DNA of 62,062 nucleotides, counting the filler, from Hausera hauseri (lineage: Eukaryota): NCBI GenBank assembly GCA_046269625.1. It is 12 parts of 12 records of this genome, joined end to end, with 100 filler letters (N's around TTAATTAATTAA, not from the genome) between each part and the next. Parts side by side here need not be neighbours in the genome. Positions count along the whole stretch, not along the records: positions 1 to 4,768 come from JBJURY010442912.1; 11 more parts are not named here. One strand, written 5' to 3'. Both the position numbers and the translations under genes were made by a program. The notes below the pieces were generated by a model that was given only the letters and a program-made list of their open reading frames with translations, was not told the origin of the DNA and made no database searches. The first letter of the stretch is position 1, and every line of letters begins with the position of its first letter. This document shows, one piece after another, positions 1-14,340 of this stretch.

Positions 1-69
1 AGCTCACATATTTCCCTCAAATCTTTTGCTAATTTATCATAATTTACGCAGTTGCATATTGATTGATAT

Positions 70-1641
70 TCATAAGGGTGATTTTTTCATATCATCCGAA
101 GAGACTTGATTTGGCGTATTGTCCATTTCTTTGTTAACAGTATGTGTTCCATCTTCTTCCTCATCATCGAATGTGTCATTCAAGGGATTTGGGACTTTTA
201 TTAGTTTTTTACGTTTAGAGAAACGTTCATCAGATTTGTCATCGTCGTTGCCAAAGAATTTGCTCATCATCAACAATGAAAGTATCCACAATAATATGGA
301 GGTCCATGAAGAATTAGGGTGATGAGATGTAGTCTCAACTGCCTCTGCTACACTAATCATGGAGAGCAAACATATTCCCATAAGGAATAACGTTCCCAGT
401 GAAAATGTGGAGTAACTCTTGATACCTGATGATTCTCATTTTTTATCTTTTTCTTGAAGGTCTTGAATATGCATTGCTCTTATTTCGTTAGCGATCTCGT
501 CCATATATTTAATGCTATTTCCCGCAAATTGTAATCGATCTATCTTCATCCACTGCTCAGGAGGGAGATTACTGTCTAAGGGTTGTCCCATTCTTCTATT
601 CCAGACTCGTTTAACTTCTTCTACCCCATTAATGAGTTCTCGAACTCCTATGTTCATATTATGATGTTTAAAGATTTTTATTGCTCGACTAGCGGCTACA
701 TAATCGTGATGTTGTGATTTTCCTGGACTAGCTAAATCAGGAATCGTATAATATACTTCTTCACAACTTATCTTCAAGAAAAATTTGTCCAGGGCGGTTA
801 ATGCATTAAAATCCAATTTTAGGTCTTCACAAATTAATTTTATTATGGGTTTATATTGTTCATCTGTTATTCCGCACTTCTCGTGGTATTTACTAAGGAA
901 ATCTTTTAATTCCGTTATACTGTTTATAAATCCTTTGACTAATTGTTGTGCATGATTTATGCGTTCTGGTGTGGCTAACAGAAAATTCTCTAGCCGGTGT
1001 CGATTAGCGGCTTCTCTAGTTAACCGAAGTGGTGGTAGATTCTCCCCTTTTCGTTGAGGCAATTCGAAATAATTTTGTTCAATTGGTTTGACTTCTTTAC
1101 TTTGTGCCTGCTTAGTAGGGTCTATTTTCCTTAACTTAGTATCGTTATACACTGGGAATTTGGGGCTCTTTTTCGGTTGATGTTTTTCAATGTCCTCTCT
1201 CAGTCGTTTAATATTTTCTTCAGCTTCTTCCAGCTTCTTGCTTAAGACGATATAGCTCACGGAAGGCTGAATCTTTCTTGTGGTCTGCATTTCCATTAAG
1301 TCGAGATATATTGAAGTTGTTGATACAGGTCTTGATAGATCTTGAAACGAATTTCGTGGTAGTTTCTGTGGGATACTTGCCACACTATTTATCGAACAAG
1401 TGTCCATGTCGGTTATCAGAGGCAAGGGTACTTGTTTTCATGCATGCTCCTTCAAGGAGGAATTATCGGTTTCCTTATCATCAACTACCGTACGGCTGTT
1501 AAACATATAATATGCTAATATCAATAGCAACATGGCCGTACTGCTCCACGCATTTGTAGAAGTAATCGTGCGCGTTGGTTGAGTATCCGCACATCCGAAT
1601 ATTATAAGCAGTATTAGCGTCAACAGGGTTATTGTAGACAA
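70..1641 (-). pseudogene. 3' accessory reading frame of gypsy family A (TM hairpin - 329-aa soluble region - TM hairpin), split by two in-frame TGA
   Basis: ORFs 1438..1641, 436..1425 and 70..381 share one frame, separated only by single TGA codons. Each flanking ORF has a pair of hydrophobic segments. Confidence 0.65.
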
Positions 1642-1889
1642 CTAAAGGGACTCCCGAAAACGGTAGATGAAGTATTAATTGTAGGTATTTCCATTATTCG
1701 CGTTTGCCTTATTTTTCGTGCTAGTGTAAATTCTGTATTCTGTTTGCTTATTTGTTTCAAGGTAACATAGTTTAACAAGAGTGGAACAGTCTCCTCTCCT
1801 GGCGCAAACCACCACTGATCGTTGCTTTGTGGCTTGGAATCTTGGTAACCTTCGCAAATGAATATGATTGATCTTCCGATAACTTTGAG

Positions 1890-4241
1890 TTATGCTCCTG
1901 TCAGTTTATACAGTACATCGAAACCAATAATGAGATCAGAATACGACTCTTGTGGGTTGGCATAACAAGCAACATCTATATACCCTATGGTTAGGTCCAA
2001 TTTTCCGCATGCTTCGGGTATATAATAGGTAATTCGTCTATATAATCGCAAATTTATACGAGTCAACGGGGTAGTAGTATAAAGTTCCGCATTAACATAC
2101 TTACCGTATACCTTAACCAATATTGGTATTAATAAAGGATAATCATTATAATTCTGACGATAATGCATGTTATATAACAATTCTAGCCTTTTTATCTCTT
2201 CTTCTAGTTTGTTTACATTTTTTCGATATTTCTCTAGATCTTTAGTTTTCTCCAACGAATGTGTAGCTACGTTTATCACTATATCGTAATCTATTAACGT
2301 ATCTCTACCTATAATGCAAGGAATGGTGGAATTTTCTAGTATGTGGTATAAAATCTTTGATCGTTTATTTTTTAATTTGGTCAAGGCTGTAACTACGCCT
2401 ATCACCTTTAGCTGATTGCCATTTATTAGTTTGTGATTTATCTCACTACTTTCATTTAACTTTAGTTTTAAAATTTCTATTGTAGTCTTACTTAAGTAAT
2501 TTTTTGCTGCTCCTGTATCTATTATTGCTTCGATTTTAACTTTATTTATAGTTATAGTTGTAGTTACCATATTATTTGACCCATCTTCTATGAATGCCAT
2601 CGTTGTGTTTTTGTCCTCCAGCTGTAATCTGTTCCTCAATGGGTATCTGCAAGGTGGTGTTTGATCTGCATTCTCATCATCCAGTTGCATTCTATTCCTT
2701 AACGGGTACTTACAAGGTGGTGTTTGCTCCAGTTTGCGCTCTTTAGCTACGGGTCTACATCGCTGTACACTCATCCAAGAGGTTTTATTTGGATTGGACA
2801 AATTCTGCAATTCTACACTTGATTCAGTTATTTGTAATATCTTATATGGTCCTTTATATGGTAATTTCAATTTTGGGCTTTCACCGGGTTTACAGGTCTC
2901 ATCTAATATATTAACCAAGTCTCCGATTCGATACATATGGGGTTTTGTTTTCTTGTCGTATTGGTCCTTATAATTTTCTTGGTGATATTTAATTTTTAAC
3001 CCTGCTCTAATCCATGCTTCTTGCAATCTTTCCTGTAGGATTGTTGCATAATCCGGTTCCTCCATCAGTTGAGACTGTGGTGGTCTATATTCGAGGTCAA
3101 TTGGCATAATATCTCGTCTGCCATATAGTAAAAAGAAGGGTGATTCCCCAGTTGTTGTATGAGGGCTTTGACGGTAAGCGTATACACAAGGTTTTATATA
3201 TAAATCCCAATCAGCTGGATGATCGTAGGCATAACTAGATATCATGATTGAAAATTGTTTATTAAATGCTTCTACTGCGCCATTAGCTTGTGGGTGATAG
3301 GGTGATGTAAATTTATGATTAACTCCTAATATCGCCAATACTTTCTCCATAAGTTCGCTGCAAAAATTACTTCCTCTATCGGATATTATTGTCATCGGTG
3401 CTCCATATTCAAATATTACGTCGTCAACTAATCTTCTGGCCATAACATCCGTAGTTTGGTTTATCATTGGCATCGCTATTGGAAATTTTGAGTGGTAATC
3501 AATAGCTGTAAGTACACATGTATTTCCTCTAGCGGTAGTTGGTAATGGTCCAACTATATCAACGCCTATACAAACGAATGGTGATGCTAAAACTGGTATT
3601 GGTTTCAATGGTGTTTTTCTTGCTTGGAAATTTCCTCTTCTTTTTGAACAAACTTGGCAGTTTGTACACCAATCTTTTACATCATCTGCTATCTTTGGCC
3701 AATAGTACTTTTGTTTAAGTCTGCCTAGTGTAGCTTTATAACCTCGATGTCCTCCGAGTTGTCCATCATGATAGTGCATTAAAAGTTTTGCTCGCATATG
3801 TTTCGGTACTACCATAAGTAAATCTTCACTATCCTGGTAATAGATATTTCCCCTTTCCATTTTATATTTATTTTTGCTCCCTTCTTTGTTTAGGCTATTA
3901 CGGATTTTACGAATTTCGTCATCCTTCGCTTGTTCTTTAGCTATAGCTTCATGTGTGATTGGTATAGACAAAAATATGTGCATTTCTTCATTAACTTCTG
4001 CATTGTCCACCTCATTTATCATAGTCTGAATCAAGTCGATCATCTTATAGTACTCATATAAAATATCTTCTACTAACGGGTCTTTATAGTCACTTTGTCT
4101 TGTATTCTGTTGATTATCCTTGTTAAGTGTTTGAATAATCATACTTATAAGTTGGTCTGTATCCTTAGTGCGTTTTTTACGTATTGCCTTGGGTACACTT
4201 GGATGGACTTTCTGCCAATAATATTCTTTCAGATCCTGCAT
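1890..4241 (-). CDS. Pol segment: integrase + GPY/F + duplicated YPLRNR motif + retropepsin domain + degenerate second retropepsin
   Basis: 783-aa ORF. AIIDTGAAKNYLS...CIIGRDTL lies C-terminal to integrase. It is followed by LVKVYGKYVNAELYTTT...DLIIGFDVL. Confidence 0.85.
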   Translation of the reverse strand: MQDLKEYYWQKVHPSVPKAIRKKRTKDTDQLISMIIQTLNKDNQQNTRQSDYKDPLVEDILYEYYKMIDLIQTMINEVDNAEVNEEMHIFLSIPITHEAIAKEQAKDDEIRKIRNSLNKEGSKNKYKMERGNIYYQDSEDLLMVVPKHMRAKLLMHYHDGQLGGHRGYKATLGRLKQKYYWPKIADDVKDWCTNCQVCSKRRGNFQARKTPLKPIPVLASPFVCIGVDIVGPLPTTARGNTCVLTAIDYHSKFPIAMPMINQTTDVMARRLVDDVIFEYGAPMTIISDRGSNFCSELMEKVLAILGVNHKFTSPYHPQANGAVEAFNKQFSIMISSYAYDHPADWDLYIKPCVYAYRQSPHTTTGESPFFLLYGRRDIMPIDLEYRPPQSQLMEEPDYATILQERLQEAWIRAGLKIKYHQENYKDQYDKKTKPHMYRIGDLVNILDETCKPGESPKLKLPYKGPYKILQITESSVELQNLSNPNKTSWMSVQRCRPVAKERKLEQTPPCKYPLRNRMQLDDENADQTPPCRYPLRNRLQLEDKNTTMAFIEDGSNNMVTTTITINKVKIEAIIDTGAAKNYLSKTTIEILKLKLNESSEINHKLINGNQLKVIGVVTALTKLKNKRSKILYHILENSTIPCIIGRDTLIDYDIVINVATHSLEKTKDLEKYRKNVNKLEEEIKRLELLYNMHYRQNYNDYPLLIPILVKVYGKYVNAELYTTTPLTRINLRLYRRITYYIPEACGKLDLTIGYIDVACYANPQESYSDLIIGFDVLYKLTGA

Positions 4242-4768
4242 GTCAGTATAGTCAAGATTAGGGTGATCGCTATAATCTTGATCAATATCACCTTTTTGAA
4301 GTCTTCACAGGAAATCTGCATTAGCGTTTGTTATTCTTGTCGATATTTTATTAAAATTTCCAGGTCCTGAATTTCTGCAGCCCATTTCATTAATTTTCGA
4401 CTAGTATCCCGTTGTTTCATTTACAATTGCAAAGGTTTTTGATCAGTATATAGTATTATCTTTCGTCCTGTAATATAATACCTAAAATACCGTAAGGCGT
4501 ATACTATGGCGTAACATTCTCTTTCAATTGTTGACCATCTACGTTGTGTTTCACTTAATGTTTTACTGACACATGCTATTATTCCTTCGCCTGGTCTGTC
4601 AGGAACTGATTGTCGTAAGACTGCTCCTGTTGCATAACCACTGGCGTCGGTCATGATTATATAAGAGTAATTAGGATCAGGAAACTGTAGTATTGGTGGG
4701 GAAGTTAAAACTTGTTTTAAGACTTTGAATGATCTATGATGTGTTTCTTCCCAATTTCATGCTGTTCC

Positions 4769-4868
4769 NNNNNNNNNNNNNNNNNNNNNNNNNNNNNNNN
4801 NNNNNNNNNNNNTTAATTAATTAANNNNNNNNNNNNNNNNNNNNNNNNNNNNNNNNNNNNNNNNNNNN
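4769..4868. other. Artificial contig spacer (N44-TTAATTAATTAA-N44); also at 9737, 14482, 19678, 25903, 31971, 36438, 40491, 45486, 51537 and 56964
   Basis: The identical 100-bp spacer, with stops in all six frames, recurs 11 times. Confidence 0.99.
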
Positions 4869-7800
4869 TTCTGGTCTTTTCAAATTTGAGTTTTTTGCGT
4901 GACTTACTTATTTTCGAAGATTTTCTATCATTTTTTAGTCTTTTGACTCGCCTATCTTAATTTTCAATTTTTTCAATTTTTTGTCCCGCTCCCTTTTACC
5001 AAAAGAATATTTTTCCACGAAAAAATTTAAAACTTTTCTGGTGTTTCCTAATTTGAATTTTTTTCACATTTTACTTAATTTTGAAGTTTTTCTTTCACTT
5101 TTTGGTCTTTTGTCTCGCCTATCTTAATTTGGAATTTTTTCAATTTTTTGGCCCGTACCACTCTAATGAAAATCTGGTTTTACCACGAAAACATTTGAAA
5201 TGTTTCTGGTCTTTTCTAATTTGAGTCTTTTGCCTGACTTTCTTAATTTCGATGATTTTCTATCATTTTTTGGTCTTTTGACTCGCCTATCTTAATTTTT
5301 AATTTTTAAATTTGTTGGCCCGACATTACTTACCAAAATTTGGTTTTTCCACGAAAAAATTTGAAAATTTTCTGGTCTTTTCTCATTTGAGTTTTTTTCC
5401 GTGACTTACTTAATTTTAAAGTTTTTCTTTCATTTTTTGGTCTTTTGTATTGACTATCTTAATTTTGAATTTTTTCAATTTTTTGGCCCGCATCCCTCAT
5501 ATGGAAATTTGGGTTTTCCACGAAAAAATTTTAGATTTTTTGTCTGGTCTTTTCTAATTTGAGTTTCTTGCTAAACTTACTTAATTTGGAAGATTTTCTA
5601 CCATTTTCTGGTCTTTTGTCTCGCCTATCTTAATTTTGAGAGTTTTCAATTTTTTAATCCCCCACTCCTCTTATGAAAATCTGGTTTTTCCACGAAACAA
5701 TTTGAAATGTTTCTCGTCTTTTCTCATTTGAGTTTTTTTTCCGTGACTTACTTAATTTTAAAGTTTTTCTTTCATTGTTGGTCTTTTGTATTGACTATCT
5801 TAATTTTGAATTTCTTCAATTTTTTGACCCACATCCCTCATATGAAAAATTGGGTTTTCCACAAAAAATTTTGACATTTTTTTCTGGTCTTTTCTAATTT
5901 GAGTTTTTAGCGATACTTACCTAATTTGGAAGATTCTCTATCATTTTTTGGTCTTTTGTCTCGCCTATCTTAATTTTGAATTTTTTCAATTTTTTGGCCC
6001 CACTGCCCCTTACCAAAATTTGCTTTATGCACGAACAATTTTGAAATTTTTCTGGTTCTTTCTATTTTGAGTTTTATGCGTGACTTACTTAATTTCGAAC
6101 ATTTTCTTTCATTTTTTGGTCTTTTGTCTCGCGTATCTTAATTTAGACTTTTTTCAAATTTTTGGCCCGCACCCTTCTAATCAAAATCATTTTTTTTCCA
6201 CACACAAAAATTTGAAATTGTTCTGATCTTCTCAAATTTGAGTTTTTTGCTTGACTTGCTTAATTTCGATGATTTTCTATCATTTTTTAGTCTTTTGACT
6301 CGCCTATCTTAATTTTCAATTTTTTCAATTTTTTGGCTCGCACCTCCCTTATGAAAATCATTTTTCTTCCACACACAAAAATTTGAAATTGTTCTGGTCT
6401 TTTCAAATTTGAGTTTTTTTGCGTGACTTACTTATTGTCGAAGAGTTTCTATCATTTTTTAGTCTTTTGTCTCGCCTATCTTAATTTTCAATTGTTTCAA
6501 TTTTTTGGCCCGCTCCACTCTAATGAAAATCTTGTTTTTCCACGAAAACATTTGAAATGTTTATGGTCTTTTCTAATTTGAGTTTTTTTCTTGACTTGCT
6601 TAATTTTGATGATCTTCTATCATTTTTTGGTCTTTTGTCTCGCCTATCTTAATTTTTAATTTTTAAATTTTTTGGCCCGACATTACTTACAAAAATTTGG
6701 TTTTTTCATGAAAAAATTTGAAAATCTTCTTGTCTTTTCTAATTTGAGTTTTATGCGTGACTTACTTAATTTCGAACATTTTCTATCATTTTTTGGTCTT
6801 TTGTCTCGCGCATCTTAATTTTGAATTTTTTCAATTTTTTGGCCCGCACCACTCTAATGAAAATCTGGTTTTTCGACGAAAACATTTGAAATGTTTATAG
6901 TCTTTTCAAATTTGAGTTTTTTGCTTGACTTGCTTAATTTCGATGATTTTCTATCATTTTTTGGTCTTTTGTCTCGCCTATATTAATTTTTAATTTTTAA
7001 ATTTTTTGGCCCGACATTACTTACCAAAATTTGGTTTTTTCATGAAAAAATTTGAAAATCTTCTGGTCTTTTCTCATTTGAGTTTTTTGCTGAACTTACT
7101 TAATTTGGAAGATTCTCTATCATTTTTTGGTCTTTTGTCTCGCCTATCTTAATTTTGAATTTTTCCAATTTTTTGGACCCTTACCAAAATTTGGTTTATC
7201 CACAAAAAATTGTGAAATTTATCTGGTTCTTTCTAATTTGAGTTTTATGCGTGACTTACTTAATTTCGAACATTTTCTATCATTTTTTGGTCTTTTGTCT
7301 CGCGTATCTTAATTTTGAATTTTTTCAATTTTTTGGCCCGCACCCCTCTTATGAAAATCATTTTTTTTCCACACACAAAAATTTGAAATTGTTCTGGTCT
7401 TTTCAAATTTGAGTTTTTTGCGTGACTTACTTATTTTCGAAGATTTTCTATCATTTTTTAGTCTTTTGTCTCGCATATCTTAATTTTCAATTTTTTCAAT
7501 TTTTTGGCCCGCTCCCTTTTACCAAAAGTTTATTTTTCCACGAAAAAATTTGAAACTTTTCTGGTCTTTCCTAATTTGAATTTTTTTCACATTTTACTTA
7601 ATTTTGAAGTTTTTCTATCACTTTTTGGTCTTTTGTCTCGCCTATCTTAATTTGGAATTTTTTCAATTTTTTGGCCCGCACCACTCTAATGAAAATCTGG
7701 TTTTTCCACGAAAACATTTGAAATGTTTCTGGTCTTTTCTAATTTGAGTTTTTTGCTTGATTTGCTTAATTTCGATGATTTTCTATCATTTTTTGGTCTT

Positions 7801-9736
7801 TTGTCTCGTGTATCTTAATTTTTAATTTTTAAATTTGTTGGCCCGACATTACTTACCAAAATTAGGTTTTTTCACCAAAAAATTTGAAAATTTTCTGGTC
7901 TTTTCTCATTTGAGTTTTTTTCCGGGACTTACTTAATTTTAAAGTTTTTCTTTCAATTTTTGGTCTTTTGTATTGACTATCTTAATTTGGAATTTTTTCA
8001 ATTTTTTGGCCCGCATCCCTCATATGAAAATTTGGGTTTTCCTCGAAAAAATTTGAGATTTTTTTTCTGGTCTTTTCTAATTTGAGTTTTTTTTGCTAAA
8101 GTTACTTAATTTGGAAGATTTTCTCCATTTCTTGGTCTTTTGTCTCGCCTATCTTAATTTTGAGAGTTTTCAATTCTTTAGCCCTCACCCCTCTTATGAA
8201 AATCTTGTTTTTCCACGAAAAAATTTGAAATGTTTCTCGTCTTTTCTCATTTGAGTCTTTTTTCCGTGACTTACTTAATTTTAAAGTTTTTCTTTCATTT
8301 TTTGTCTTTTGTATTGACTATCTTAATTTTGAATTTTTTCAATTTTTTGGGCCACATCCCTCATATGAATATTTGGGTTTTCACAAAAATTTTGACATTT
8401 TTTCTGGTCTTTTCTAATTTGAGTTTTTTGCGAAACTTACTTAATTTGGAAGATTCTCTATCATTTTTTGGTCTTTTCTCTCGCGTATGTTAAATTTGAT
8501 TTTTTTCAGTATTTGGCCCGCTCCCCTCTTATGAAAATATGGTTTTTCCACGTAAAAATTTGAAATTTTTCTGGTCTTTTCAAATTTGAGTTTTTTGCGT
8601 GACTTACTTTCGAAGATTTTGTATCATTTTTTATTCTTTTGTCTCGCCTATCTTAATTTTGAATTTTTTCAATTTTTTGGCCCGCTCCCCTTTTTCCACG
8701 AAAAAATATGAAATTTTTCTGGTCTTTCCTAATTTGAATTTTTTTCACAATTTACTTAATTTTGAAGTTTTTCTATCACTTTTTGGTCTTTTGTCTCGCC
8801 TATCTTAATTTGGAATTTTTTCAATTTTTTGGCCCGCACCACTCTAATGAAAATCTGGTTTATCCACGAAAACATTTGAAATGTTTCTGGTCTTTTCTAA
8901 TTTGAGTTTTTTGCTTGATTTGCTTAATTTCTTGATTTTCTATCATTTTTTGGTCTTTTGTCTCGGCTCGGCTATCTTAATTTTTTATTTTTAAATTTGT
9001 TGGCCCTACATTACTTACCAAAATTTGGTTTTTCCACGAAAAAATTTGAAAATTTTCTGGTCTTTTCACATTTGAGTTTTTTATCGTGACTTACTTAATT
9101 TTAATGTTTTTCTTTCATTTTTGGTCTTTTGTATTGACTATCTTAATTTTGAATTTTTTCAATTTTTTGGGCCACATCCCTCATATGAAAATTTGGGTTT
9201 TCCACGAAAAAATTTGAGATTTTTTTTATTCTCTTCTTTTCTAATTTGAGTTTTTTGCAAAACTTACTTACTTTGGAAGATTTTCTACCATTTTTTGGTC
9301 TTTTGTCTCGCCTATCTTAATTTTGAGAGTTTTCAATTTTTTAGCCCTCACCCCTCTTATGAAAATCTGGTTTTTCCACGAAAAAATTTGAAATGTTTCT
9401 CGTCTTTTCTCATTTGAGTCTTTTTTCCGTGACTTACTTAATTTCGATGATTTTCTATCATTTTTTGGTCTTTTGTCTCGCCTATCTTAATTTTTAATTT
9501 TTAAATTTTTTGGCCCGACATTACTTACCAAAATTTGGTTTTTTCAAAAAAAAATTTGAAAATTTTCTGGTCTTTTCTCGTTTGAGTTTTTTTTCCGTGA
9601 GTTACTTAATTTTGAAGTTTTTCTATCACTTTTTGGTCTTTTGTCTCGCCTATCTTAATTTGGAATTTTTTCAATTTTTTGGCCCGCACCACTCTAATGA
9701 AAATCTGGTTTTTCCACGAAAACATTTGAAATGTTT
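4869..9736. repeat. T-rich tandem satellite, ~168-bp monomer, ~29 copies, with higher-order variant order
   Basis: The anchor ttttggccc recurs at ~5148, 5315, 5483, 5993, 6162, 6504, 6672, 6838, 7005 and onward. ggtcttttgtctcgcctatcttaattt is present in most units. Confidence 0.97.
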
Positions 9737-9836
9737 NNNNNNNNNNNNNNNNNNNNNNNNNNNNNNNNNNNNNNNNNNNNTTAATTAATTAANNNNNNNN
9801 NNNNNNNNNNNNNNNNNNNNNNNNNNNNNNNNNNNN

Positions 9837-12000
9837 GATCTTTTCATTTCATTAAATTCCTGTTCCAAAGCATTACGTCTGCGTAGCGACAAAGGTCTGG
9901 CCTTTTGTTTGATCGGCCTCTGGTGCTCTGTTACTATGTGATGATAAGTTGTGAATGGAGGCTTGAAGTTGAAGTCCCTTTTAACTATGCGAAAGCAAGA
10001 CATTGTGACGTATGATTGAAGATTGGAGTCTAGAGACAAAAATGAATGAGGCATGTTAATAGAGAAAACAGCTCCAGTGATTGACGAAAAGCAGCTGGCA
10101 TCGCTACTGTCGACGTCTAATTTGGATTTTTGTTTTAGGATATTTTTATGATTGTCGTTCATAATGGAAATATTGGCGACTTTATCGGAAGTTTTTTTAT
10201 AGATGAAGAAGCGTTCAACAAGTTCATAGATGAGCGCAGTGAATTGCTCGCTAAGTTGTCTATGAGACACATGTTTAGAGTTGCAATTGAGTTCCTGCTT
10301 AAAAGACAGCTGTATTTGCAATCGCCCAATAGATCATGTGCGGTGAGAAAATCTGAGCCTATTATGGGAGATTTAATGTTGGCCACGTGGAACTTCCAGA
10401 CAAACTTATCCGGCAAGTCGACAAATGTGAAAGTTAATTCCGTGGTTTTTGCAACAGGCAATGATTGACCACTAGCAGTGAAAATCGGTGGACAGGAAAT
10501 CATAGTCGATGTAGGAACGAAGGACAAGGGAAGGAGCGAAAAGGAAGCTCCTGAGTCTATAAGGAAGTCGATATGTTAAGTATGTCTGCTTAGCAGTACA
10601 GCTTTCAACAAAAAGACTGTAGAGGCGGTGTTGAAACGGCCAGAAGATTGAGCGATATTGCCTGAGCCAGAATGTGCCGATAAAATCTGGCGGCATTATT
10701 AGTTTTTTGAAGGTTTTGGAAGAAAGGAAGAGGAAGAGGAAAAGCGAGGAGATTTATCGATGTAATCTTTACAACCAGACACACATGATCTAGCCCGTGA
10801 CTGAAACTTATTGTGATATACGAAAATGGGGTTGTCCACAGCGTACTGTTCGCTGTAGAACCGACAACTCAAAAAACATTTCCGAACATCCCTTCGAAAT
10901 CACGTGTGATAGAAGCAAGTCATGCGTCCGCCAGGTGACATGGATCGAGTAGAGTGTCTGGCAATGCTTCTCGCCCTTGAAGTTGTGGTTTCACTTCTTC
11001 TAGGCCAATTAAGATTATTTATTTGGGTAGTAATGGCCAAAATCGACTGTTGCAACTCGTCAAACTGTTGCTGCATCATTTGCAATTGTTGTGAAAATGA
11101 AGTATTATGTGTGTGAAGGTGTGTGAGCAGTTGCTGCAGCTGCTTGTTGTTGACTATTATATTGCAAAATATCAAAGCTTTTGTCTGCCAATAAGGCGAG
11201 ATTTTCAAGGGCCGTTGAGTCATCTACTACAGTGAGCAGCGCTTTGATGGAGGTTGGCAAGGATGAAAGAAAATATTGACGAAGAAGATCGGCATTGTTT
11301 ATAGGAGTGACGCCTAACGAACTCAGTTGAGATATTGCAGTTTTAAGGAAATCCGACGGTTTTTGATTAACGATGGCATGTTCATTAAAGTATTTCTGAA
11401 TTATGCTGTCAATGAAAGGGTCGGTAATGTGCAGAACTGATTCATAAAGCATATCATATGGATTTGAAGAGGTTAGTATGTCAACCAGATTATTGAATTG
11501 CTTCTTGTTATTAGCTGGAAGTAGTAGCAACAAACTGTTCGCCCGCAAGAAGGAATCTGTGATATGATTGGCCTTAAGCCATTGCAAATGGAATTGTAAC
11601 CAGGTACGACTCGAATTCGTCTTGTCGAGAAAAAAATTTGTGCAAGGGAGATTTGGAGATGTAGTCGGTGTGGGGTCGGCAGGACGTCGAGCAAATCTGG
11701 TCTTATTAGGGTTTTCCGGATAAAAAGGATCGGAGTCCAATCCAGCCGGTAGGCGAAAGTGAAGAGTGAGATGGATAGTTTTGGAGGAAAATGCAGAAAG
11801 TTGGTTATGGACGTTGAGTATAGAACCATGATATAAGCGATAAAAGTATGACGAGGTGAGGAGAGAAGATAGATGTGCGTGAAAGTGATGAGGGGTATCC
11901 GTGTGTGGCGCATAGAAGGTATGGAGGTGTGTATTATTGAAGAAGATAAACAGGGATAAGGGACGCGGTGCAGTGTGGGTGGTCACGCTCGACTTCTCAC
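9837..12000 (-). mobile_element. Ty3/gypsy family B, 5' part: UBL-Gag, two Cys/His knuckles, protease, start of RT (degenerate)
   Basis: Gag motifs KPSDFL and LLRQYFLSSLP. Knuckles CFYH..F....KC...C and VYHNKF...ARSC...C. Protease FLIDSGAS...IIGSDFL. RT start HHIVT..RPIKQKARPLS. Confidence 0.92.
11741..11956 (-). other. Ubiquitin-like domain at the N-terminus of Gag (ends RLPAG)
   Basis: 72 codons SLFIFFNNTHLHTF...HFHAHLSSLL...YFYRLYHGSIL...IHLTLHFRLPAG follow the ubiquitin pattern. Homologous to 58099-58311. Confidence 0.65.
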
Positions 12001-12049
12001 CCAAATCATCGATAGCTCTTTCGTTGATAGCTCTATCTTGATTTGGGCT

Positions 12050-14340
12050 ATCATAGTTCCAATGTGACATATGACACTCATGTAAACTACCAGCGTTGTT
12101 TTGCATTATAAAGAATAAAATGCCGATATGTAAATATCTATCATAGTTACCTTTTGATAAAGGTAATTCGAGCAATCGCTCTTGGGGTATTTGCGTCAAA
12201 TGAACTGGAGTAGTACCGTTATTCAAAAACGGAGTAACTGTAACATTAGACGAATCGGAATAGGAAAGACCAATGTCATCATCATTATCTCGAAACAATC
12301 GTGGACTACGTTTGATCTGTAATTTTATGAGGTTGAGATCTATGCCAGCACCCCATTCTTTTGCATCAGCATTCGGTGGTAGACATTTGCTATTAGCCTT
12401 GCGGTTCTGCACACATGAACCGGTAGTTCTTCCGCCAGCATATCAGTTGGGAGTTTGTTCAATGACGTATTTAACTGATTGTCCTTCGATATCGGCAACA
12501 CAAGTTTAGACAGATTTATTTGTCGTGAATTTGTCAAGAAGACTTTCAGAAAAGTTGAACTGTTTACAAAAACTGTTGTACAATGTCCTATTGACTATAC
12601 ACCCGATCAACGATAGAATACTGTTCCAAATTGCCGGTGATTCTATTTTGTCAAATACAACACAGACTTCTCGTACAATACAGGCTAAGCATGATTCCTG
12701 GTTGCTATATATCATGACGAAATGTTCAAGGAGGGTCATCAGTAGTCCGTATACATGATCGTGGTTCTTTAGATAACCAATACAATTGGTTATAATTAGG
12801 AGCCAGTTCTCATCGTAGTACATGTCATTAAGTATATACTTGGTTAGCATGTGAAGAATGTGACATTGTGTTATAATATTTTCGACGTTGTTCCGTCGAG
12901 AGGAAGCGTTCAAATGGCGAAAAAAATGAAATACGAATGAGCTGTACGTGCAGAAAATGTTAATAATGTAGTTAATGATAGCCACACTACGTTCATAAGC
13001 CAGGGTAATGATGTGACGCAATGCTTCACTAAGATGGACGGAATGAGTTGAATTGTAGAAAAAATGAGTGAGAATTGCCAATGTGTGGATCATTCCATCA
13101 ACGCTATACGAAAACGTCTGGCATCCTATGGCATATTCACATTTTTTATTAATAATATGAGCTATTTTATCATCGAGTTTCGTACGTTCCTCATCATACG
13201 TACTAATCAAAATGTCGAAAGCTATGTGAGGAATTGATGCACTTCTTGCCATTCGACTGATATATCCACGGTACACCGGAAACACGATATACATCCATTT
13301 GGTTTTTGGTACACAGTACTGATGTCGTATCAGATTCTCGTGTAGTATTTTATCGTTTCCGTATGACACTTTCTTTCTGATGGTGACAGGGTAACGTTTA
13401 CCATGTTCAAGTATGTCCAACTGACTGACAGTCAATAGAATTCCCAGTAATTCCGAATCGATTTTCGATTCACTATATGCAGAAATCTTCAGTGTCTCTT
13501 TATCGGATGTCTTGGAAAAGAAACTCTTAATTTCTTCGATAGCCGAGGGTGAATTGTTATTGGAGAATTTGCAAGAAAACAATGAACAGAAGATCGACTG
13601 GAAAGGAAAAGCAGTTTGGTATTCGTGTGGCATCATTTTCAGAAAGCAAGAAGTAAAACTGATTTGGTCTATTGTACCCCAGTAGACAGAGAACACTGTG
13701 ATGTCGGTGTCAATGGATAATACATATCCACGAAACCATCTCGACAGTTTATAGTAGATATCTCGACAGACGATATCATTGTGGTTGATATCTTGACAAT
13801 TACGGTCGTATTTGTTTTAGAAACGGACGTCTTGCCCGGTGATGGAGTTTCGTCAACAGCAATCGACATACAATCGTCCAGCAGAAAGTTGAGATATTCT
13901 TCTAAAGCAGTTCTTGTTTTTTACATCAAATTCCCGTATCCACGATAAGCATCTTCAACGATCACGGTTTCGCTGAGCTGTGCGTCGTAATGAATTTCGG
14001 CATTTGATGTTATTTTTGAGGAGTTCTGAAGAACATTCATTTCATCATGCAAAACGGTGATGATGATATTGTCCAGTCTACATTCAAGTTCGTGGCACTG
14101 GGCTTTATTTTTCAATTTCGATATAAGGTCTATGTACATTTTATCACCAAAACTGCATTTTTGTACATTTTTGTACATTTTATCATCTGCAGAATGATTA
14201 AAAACACGGATGTAGAAATGAATCGTTTCCAACGACAAAAGTGCAGCATTTTCACTGTAATGGGTTTCATGAATTTTTTGTTTGCCATTTCACAGATTTC
14301 AGTAATTTCTTTCTTTCTTTTGATTGGTAAAATTCTGACA
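12050..14340 (-). pseudogene. Cluster of intronless, closely packed, partly broken ORFs of unknown function
   Basis: ORFs 13921..14238, 13669..13869, 12506..13696 and 12340..12537, plus the N-terminal part of 11105..12412, all lie on one strand and abut or overlap. No motif recognised. Confidence 0.45.

Follow-up and report, generated by a model that had tools for sequence, protein, structure and literature searches.

A Burro-like retrotransposon with a long extension 3' of the integrase

We analyzed a 62,062-nucleotide stretch of Hausera hauseri DNA (assembly GCA_046269625.1; hereafter the window) and focused on positions 1-4768, a single contig (C442912) whose minus strand carries part of the Pol region of a retrotransposon and, 3' of the integrase, a long coding extension. 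The window is made of separate contigs strung together via N-TTAATTAATTAA-N linkers (window 4769-4868 and later N runs), so the contigs that adjoin C442912 in it are probably not its genomic neighbors. Judged from its sequence, the element is a high-copy Ty3/gypsy long terminal repeat (LTR) retrotransposon of the Burro-like kind. Burro (GYPSM1) elements are giant gypsy-like LTR retrotransposons of planarians, according to the parts of the published description used here (PMC6431247); we file the element as Burro-like, and not as one of Burro-1 to -4, by its organization and that description.

The contig encodes RNase H (RH) and integrase (IN), followed in frame by a second protease domain (PR2), a degenerate third (PR3) and the first part of the extension, which contains two cassettes of a signal-peptide-like and a transmembrane (TM) segment (Table 1). 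The original prediction held that Pol continues here as a giant polyprotein punctuated by two such membrane modules, and its local reading of the frames was accurate. After the TAA at 1892-1890 the Pol frame stays open for 86 codons (1889-1632; about 85 had been claimed), and beyond a frameshift near 1640 three minus-strand open reading frames (ORFs) separated by single TGAs share one other frame (1641-1441, 67 aa; 1437-439, 333 aa; 435-73, 121 aa). The soluble domain between the modules exists as described, in an ORF of 333 aa rather than 329; PR2 and the degenerate PR3 just before the extension had been overlooked, and the size of the extension had been put too low. By hydropathy, the two pairs in cassettes 1 and 2 are the only strong hydrophobic segments within 1641-70, and no ORF of 70-1890 matched a Pfam family above the cut-off.

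Table 1. Features of the window copy on contig C442912
Feature	Position	Strand	Evidence
RNase H, Ty3/gypsy Pol	4424..4756	-	PF17919, E 6.8e-31
Integrase, H2C2 zinc domain and core	3291..3809	-	PF17921, E 3.8e-20; PF00665, E 6.1e-14
PR2, second retropepsin-type aspartyl protease, DTG motif	2271..2573	-	PF13975, E 3e-7; in frame 3' of integrase
PR3, degenerate protease-like domain	1893..2150	-	hhalign against retropepsin profile, probability 83%, E 8.6e-6
Private stop TAA (decay)	1890..1892	-	sense codon in 33/34 sister contigs
Cytosolic linker (predicted), ending at private one-base frameshift near 1640	1632..1889	-	33/36 sisters open; omega 0.11
Cassette 1: signal-peptide-like segment, small-residue site, short Thr/Ser stub, TM segment	1501..1641	-	hydropathy
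Soluble region between two private TGAs (1440-1438, 438-436)	439..1437	-	sister codons, omega, model
Cassette 2: signal-peptide-like segment, small-residue site, short stub, TM segment	268..399	-	hydropathy, small-residue counts
Acidic cytosolic tail (predicted), shortened by private ~76-nt deletion at 84-78	70..267	-	split alignments in sisters

The breaks in the window copy are private

Searches with the region of 1-4768 returned 372 to 1,462 first-look candidates each, as expected of a high-copy repeat, and 40 candidates were scored per search; every sister count given here therefore refers to the best-matching copies. Stops and frameshifts were compared across 48 contigs. The stop at 1440 is a sense codon in 34 of the 36 sisters covering the position and the stop at 438 in 26 of 27, and near 1640 one base more is present in 35 of the 36 sisters spanning 1700-1600. 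The TGA at 72-70 is not an end of the frame: it is the product of a private deletion of ~76 nt, over whose span 10 of 15 sisters are open. In one natural copy an uninterrupted frame of 1,382 codons runs over all these break positions, and in contigs of two public runs (X1 and X2) positions 438 and 1440 read differently from the window copy, with essentially full depth. Further 5', the break between the RNase H and integrase ORFs is likewise private, with 13 of 18 sisters open over 4450-4280.

The window copy of the element is thus dead and decayed. These comparisons also bear on two readings that the window copy itself could suggest with its single stops in one frame: that its stops and frameshift mark programmed recoding, and that its ORFs are separate genes. 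Because the breaks are private (any given stop occurs in at most 1 of 34-36 sisters, and the public runs lack those at 438 and 1440), we reject both programmed read-through and separate genes, which retain almost no probability. The original prediction's own question, whether the stops are conserved or private, is thereby decided in favor of private stops, and sister copies contain the region and keep it in frame.

A probable single frame from Gag to ankyrin repeats

We assembled the order of the whole element from natural copies that overlap one another, at 307 loci with 260 distinct stretches. From 5' to 3' it comprises upstream RING ORFs, an ATG, Retrotrans_gag, an Arg/Asp/Ser-rich region, a weakly BCL2-like segment and Env, followed by a first protease (PR1), reverse transcriptase (RT), RH, IN, PR2, the PR3-like domain, nine signal/TM-like cassettes and ankyrin repeats. 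The ATG is conserved in 15/15 copies; the five that could be matched all carry an in-frame stop 5 codons before it. Retrotrans_gag (PF03732, E 3.2e-5) lies near the N-terminus of this ORF, with no shared stop downstream of it. A mononegavirus-type fusion protein with signal and anchor lies in frame between the Gag region and the protease (PF24664, E 1.3e-38 and 4.9e-17), the natural frame leads from the Env anchor into PR1, and the order PR-RT-RH-IN is found complete on a single natural contig (L096). At the other end, the extension closes with ankyrin repeats (E 1.5e-11) and a terminal stop common, within one codon, to 6 of 7 informative sisters. A polypurine tract followed by TGT is present in 19 of 20 copies, and most alignments end there, which fits a 3' LTR beginning with TG.

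Across 10,737 codon columns, 9,155 of them covered by at least five sisters, just one had at least 30% stops (3/8, in RNase H), and the Gag-side scans held no such column. Open sisters were mostly the majority at the junctions tested and fewer over longer spans (6/15, 9/19, 11/30); one RT-RH break was open in 3/9 to 6/11 sisters, depending on the anchor. Where checked, the breaks at the less-open junctions were scattered. A shared stop before the capsid domain, suspected from four early copies, was ruled out, as 9 of 14 copies are open there. Summed overlap offsets give a frame of 28,779 nt, or an estimated ~9,600 codons, of which ~5,700 run from PR2 to the end of the frame, in keeping with the proposal that Pol continues as a giant polyprotein; the internal region of the element measures at least ~33 kb.

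Three points weigh against so long a frame. The 11/30-open junction spans 317 nt, albeit with scattered breaks; the length sums offsets among seven natural stretches of different subfamilies, no contig spanning the element; and ~2 kb of the extension is covered by 0-2 sisters and relies on one natural frame of 1,641 codons. We nevertheless consider it very probable, from these alignments, that the element has one frame of an estimated ~9,600 codons and that sister copies read through every break of the window copy.

A continuous DNA frame could still be expressed mostly from spliced or subgenomic RNAs, with the giant protein made rarely or never. In gypsy-type elements Env is expressed from a spliced RNA, and the amounts required of Gag, Pol and membrane proteins differ. 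Against this, no shared stop or frameshift, the usual gain of separately expressed ORFs, separates the parts, and the fusion of integrase to membrane proteins is kept in outside relatives (described below), so that we regard expression of the extension mainly from such RNAs as improbable.

Several features of the wider element were observed alongside the frame. One copy (L092, 407-4015) has an extra tandem repeat of a helical domain of ~150 aa relative to L046, indicating that polyprotein length varies among subfamilies, and another (L261, near 509) has an internal deletion fusing the Gag N-terminal region straight to Env sequence. The 3' LTRs (L238-L257, L144) are almost fully diverged directly after the polypurine tract and fall into many small groups, while the internal region is still 80-90% alike. 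Accessory ORFs 5' of the Gag start carry RING fingers (L267, 3-893, E 9.3e-13; L261, 1795-2355, E 8.2e-9), the former with weak BIR-like motifs (E 0.05-0.55) in an IAP-like layout. Between the ankyrin stop and the polypurine tract lie further ORF pieces with RING fingers (L144, ~3300-880; L143, 1864-1325).

The extension was under purifying selection

We estimated omega from single-base codon variants relative to the commonest codon in each column, counting a variant as shared when present in at least three copies. Shared-variant omega was 0.06 for PR2, 0.01 for the PR3-like domain, 0.11 for the linker, 0.14 and 0.19 for the hairpins of cassettes 1 and 2, and 0.19 and 0.06 in the soluble region; downstream of the window region it was 0.04-0.20. 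Altogether 11 of 12 post-integrase segments fell at 0.01-0.20, the acidic tail being the weakest at 0.58. Private variants in the window's post-integrase segments gave 0.6-1.2, and off-frame controls gave 0.90 and 2.18. Low omega for shared variants together with neutral-looking private variants indicates that the extension was under purifying selection: the transposing lineage translated it and kept it under selection, and decay followed insertion.

These values also bear on the idea that the extension has no function and is junk or captured sequence. Most of it has no Pfam family, and a phmmer search of the 333-aa region against 1.84 billion representatives returned a single match, a 95-aa fragment. 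Junk would not be expected to show shared-variant omega of 0.01-0.20 against ~1 for private variants of the window segments, nor to end in recognizable ankyrin repeats, and we regard this idea as very improbable.

Membrane cassettes and their proposed processing

The membrane module described at 1641-1501 and 399-268 is present at both places and occurs a third time downstream, followed by six more signal/TM-like units. Three short hairpin cassettes lie amid repeated helical domains, four short single-pass cassettes follow, and then come ~1,100 soluble residues, two ectodomain-TM units and the ankyrin repeats. Each cassette consists of a hydrophobic segment, a small-x-small site, a stub or ectodomain and a TM segment, with trailing basic residues clearest in cassettes 4-9. 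The DDK that had been proposed as part of the module is not a family motif, natural copy L046 having an acidic patch alone at that place. Small residues at -3/-1 are kept in 36/38, 23/25 and 11/12 sisters for cassettes 1, 2 and 3 and in 6/6, 4/5, 2/2 and 1/2 for cassettes 4-7; the Env signal has them in 22/26. A local alignment of hairpins 1 and 2 scored 50, a value attained by 1 of 5,000 full shuffles and, when the hydropathy layout was preserved in shuffling, by 367 of 5,000. The shared layout is thus real and sequence homology unproven; the case for a common ancestry of the two is weak.

We propose that each cassette would act as an internal signal sequence, cut by host signal peptidase after the small-x-small site, and that what follows the cut would be a short stub in the lumen or an ectodomain, then a TM segment that stops transfer and finally a domain in the cytosol. 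The post-integrase half would in this way be threaded through the endoplasmic reticulum membrane to yield about nine membrane-anchored (type I) accessory proteins. With the segments paired, the chain would come back to the cytosolic side after each pair, where the enzymes, the helical domain in the window and the ankyrins at the end would all lie, and PR2, perhaps together with PR3, would free integrase from the membrane-bound train. The precedent for signal-peptidase cleavage is a prediction made for the planarian secretory cell nidovirus, whose polyprotein is encoded by one giant ORF (13,556 aa); the membrane proteins predicted to be released from its C-terminal part by signal peptidase include one that combines a TM segment with ankyrin repeats (PMC6211748).

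Several observations count against this scheme. The units were called from hydropathy and column counts only, and in cassettes 4-6 the first segment is weakly hydrophobic and was spotted by eye, hydropathy flagging just the TM segment. Cassettes 8 and 9 pass the strict -3/-1 rule in only 7/21 and 0/18 sisters, with Ile at -3 and with Thr at -1 in 18/18. The proposed ectodomains show hardly any enrichment of N-glycosylation sequons (1.5 and 1.0 per 100 aa, versus 0.75-0.95).

The hydrophobic pairs of a single polyprotein could instead be uncleaved helical hairpins that tether cytosolic domains to membranes, all cutting being done by PR1 and PR2. The loops of cassettes 1-3 are just ~10-15 residues long, PR2 with an intact DTG stands directly before the extension, and the strict rule is, as noted, poorly kept in cassettes 8-9. 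Against uncleaved hairpins, cassettes 1-5 keep small residues at -3/-1 immediately behind the first hydrophobic segment, a pattern also present in the Env signal, and two cassettes open into beta-rich ectodomains of 260-500 aa, which need translocation. We therefore think the hairpin alternative unlikely, and a single frame processed by signal peptidase into about nine membrane-anchored accessory proteins the probable arrangement.

The products are not a classical Env, as the original prediction had anticipated: the mononegavirus-type fusion protein sits upstream of Pol and its first protease, and Pfam found no fusion-protein family in the extension. They would more likely modulate the host than serve entry, a role suggested by PPxY-type tails, by the ectodomain-TM-ankyrin organization of the last product and by the RING fingers in the flanking ORFs. 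PPxY motifs, which are linked to Nedd4-type ligases, occur in the cytosolic tails of two of the short single-pass cassettes (L090, 8117-3195), and one occurs in the outside relative P0002.

A bolder picture is one we hold only tentatively, as possible but somewhat less likely than not to be right in full. The polyprotein would be doubled relative to Burro (~9,600 aa, ~33 kb internal), possibly the largest retroelement protein, and would carry a nidovirus-style, signal-peptidase-cut array of host-modulating membrane proteins, among them PPxY-tailed recruiters of ubiquitin ligases and a receptor-like ectodomain-TM-ankyrin protein, along with a dedicated PR2, maybe as a single-chain PR2-PR3 pseudo-dimer.

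Domains of the extension

PR2 retains its catalytic Asp in 21 of 22 copies, with the DTG intact. In the PR3-like domain, column counts show the Asp kept in most copies and the Gly of the catalytic motif missing; hmmsearch alone did not place PR3 above shuffles. PR2 and PR3 may act as a single-chain pseudo-dimer. Their joint structure model had a predicted local distance difference test (pLDDT) score of 34.5. Word-indexed searches, which are weak evidence, gave no match for PR2-PR3 or for the downstream repeated domain.

The soluble region of the window copy comprises a variable linker (~1437-1080) and an all-helical domain (~1053-454). Its model is helical (pLDDT 67.5), and the domain seems to recur, diverged, at least twice downstream (22-28% identity in a paralog alignment). 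Foldseek with this model found no match at E <= 0.001 in PDB or BFVD; the best VIA Z was 5.8, with Cas13d at Z 5.3, values in the usual range for helical bundles. The Atlas pointed to HEPN-like clusters at 0.76-0.80, below its recognition threshold and a lead only, and no HEPN motif was seen in a three-way alignment of the helical domains. PDB sequence searches with both repeat alignments returned nothing below E 0.1. For ectodomain 2 the Atlas suggested an FN3/Ig-like fold at 0.84, again a lead, under 0.9.

Relation to known elements and viruses

In the published passages available to us, Burro ORF1 is 4,873 and 5,140 aa long with CCHC knuckles, the internal region reaches up to 25 kb, and the hallmark is a single ORF with Env ahead of Pol (PMC6431247); the passages of two further papers that mention Burro add no structural detail (PMC11410931, PMC8532177). 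Measured against these passages, the element shares the one ORF with Gag, an accessory region and a mononegavirus-type Env in frame before PR-RT-RH-IN, as well as ankyrins, upstream accessory ORFs, giant size, very high copy number and perhaps the BCL2-like and BIR-like signals, which are weak. It differs in length (an estimated ~9,600 codons and at least ~33 kb internal) and in having PR2, a degenerate PR3 and about nine signal/TM cassettes after integrase, which that description lacks in the parts used.

Burro has two or three CCHC knuckles after Gag; no CX2CX4HX4C motif was present in ORFs of at least 60 aa at the loci examined, where an Arg/Asp/Ser-rich region stands instead. For the segment before Env, the position of Burro's BCL2, the best relevant match was Bcl-2-related A1 (E 0.32, rank 2 of 4), with no Pfam match. 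Ubi2/SUMO-like, MATH_TRAF_C and dUTPase-like domains had no Pfam or PDB sequence match; the published Burro calls used HHpred. Burro's own downstream ORFs may be related to the extension. The literature searched, which did not take in the primary Burro paper, its supplements or Repbase, yielded no account of a second protease and membrane cassettes 3' of integrase.

The likeness to the planarian nidovirus, as far as its report was drawn on, is one of organization only: unlike the element, the nidovirus is a virus with an RNA genome, and it has FN2 domains and a 3C-like protease.

Errantiviruses, the Env-bearing gypsy elements, also encode a signal-peptide/TM protein 3' of integrase, which in their case is the fusogen and has its own ORF. 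In our element the fusogen lies 5' of Pol, while the region 3' of integrase continues the frame and matches no fusion protein.

We placed the integrase in a tree of 93 sequences (the window element and the 92 of 121 fetched proteins that passed the coverage filter). The three nearest outside integrases, P0002, P0003 and P0004, form a clade with it (support 0.974). In P0004, IN is followed by a protease, a degenerate protease-like region (hhalign E 2.4e-4) and ankyrins, and then by a signal, an ectodomain and a TM segment; P0002 has IN, signal, ectodomain and TM; and P0003 has a signal-like segment 3' of IN, seen by eye. Judging by these layouts, carrying membrane proteins in frame 3' of integrase seems to be a trait of the four-member clade, P0004 sharing the post-integrase protease and ankyrins as well. 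The extensions of the three relatives are far shorter (proteins of 1,349-1,934 aa), and the repeated helical domains of the element gave nothing above a marginal score in them. Beyond the clade, one gypsy protein (P0111) has by eye Gag-Pol in frame with a post-integrase signal peptide and an Env-like start.

If confirmed, the single frame would roughly double the published size of the Burro polyprotein, bring it near the 13,556-aa nidovirus protein and imply that an RNA of more than 33 kb is reverse transcribed and packaged. It would also show a retrotransposon deriving a whole set of membrane accessory proteins from a single ORF by means of internal signal peptides, like large RNA viruses. 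The ways in which giant retroelements control stoichiometry and interfere with apoptosis or ubiquitin pathways of the host, an issue posed as open for Burro (PMC6431247), would become testable.

Other features of the window

Two further stretches of the window are of note. Positions 4869-9736 are an AT-rich satellite with a period of 168/338 bp, the short unit being present in ~29 copies. At 9785-12442, on the minus strand, lies a second retroelement-like fragment with ORFs that appear Gag-like and aspartyl-protease-like by eye.

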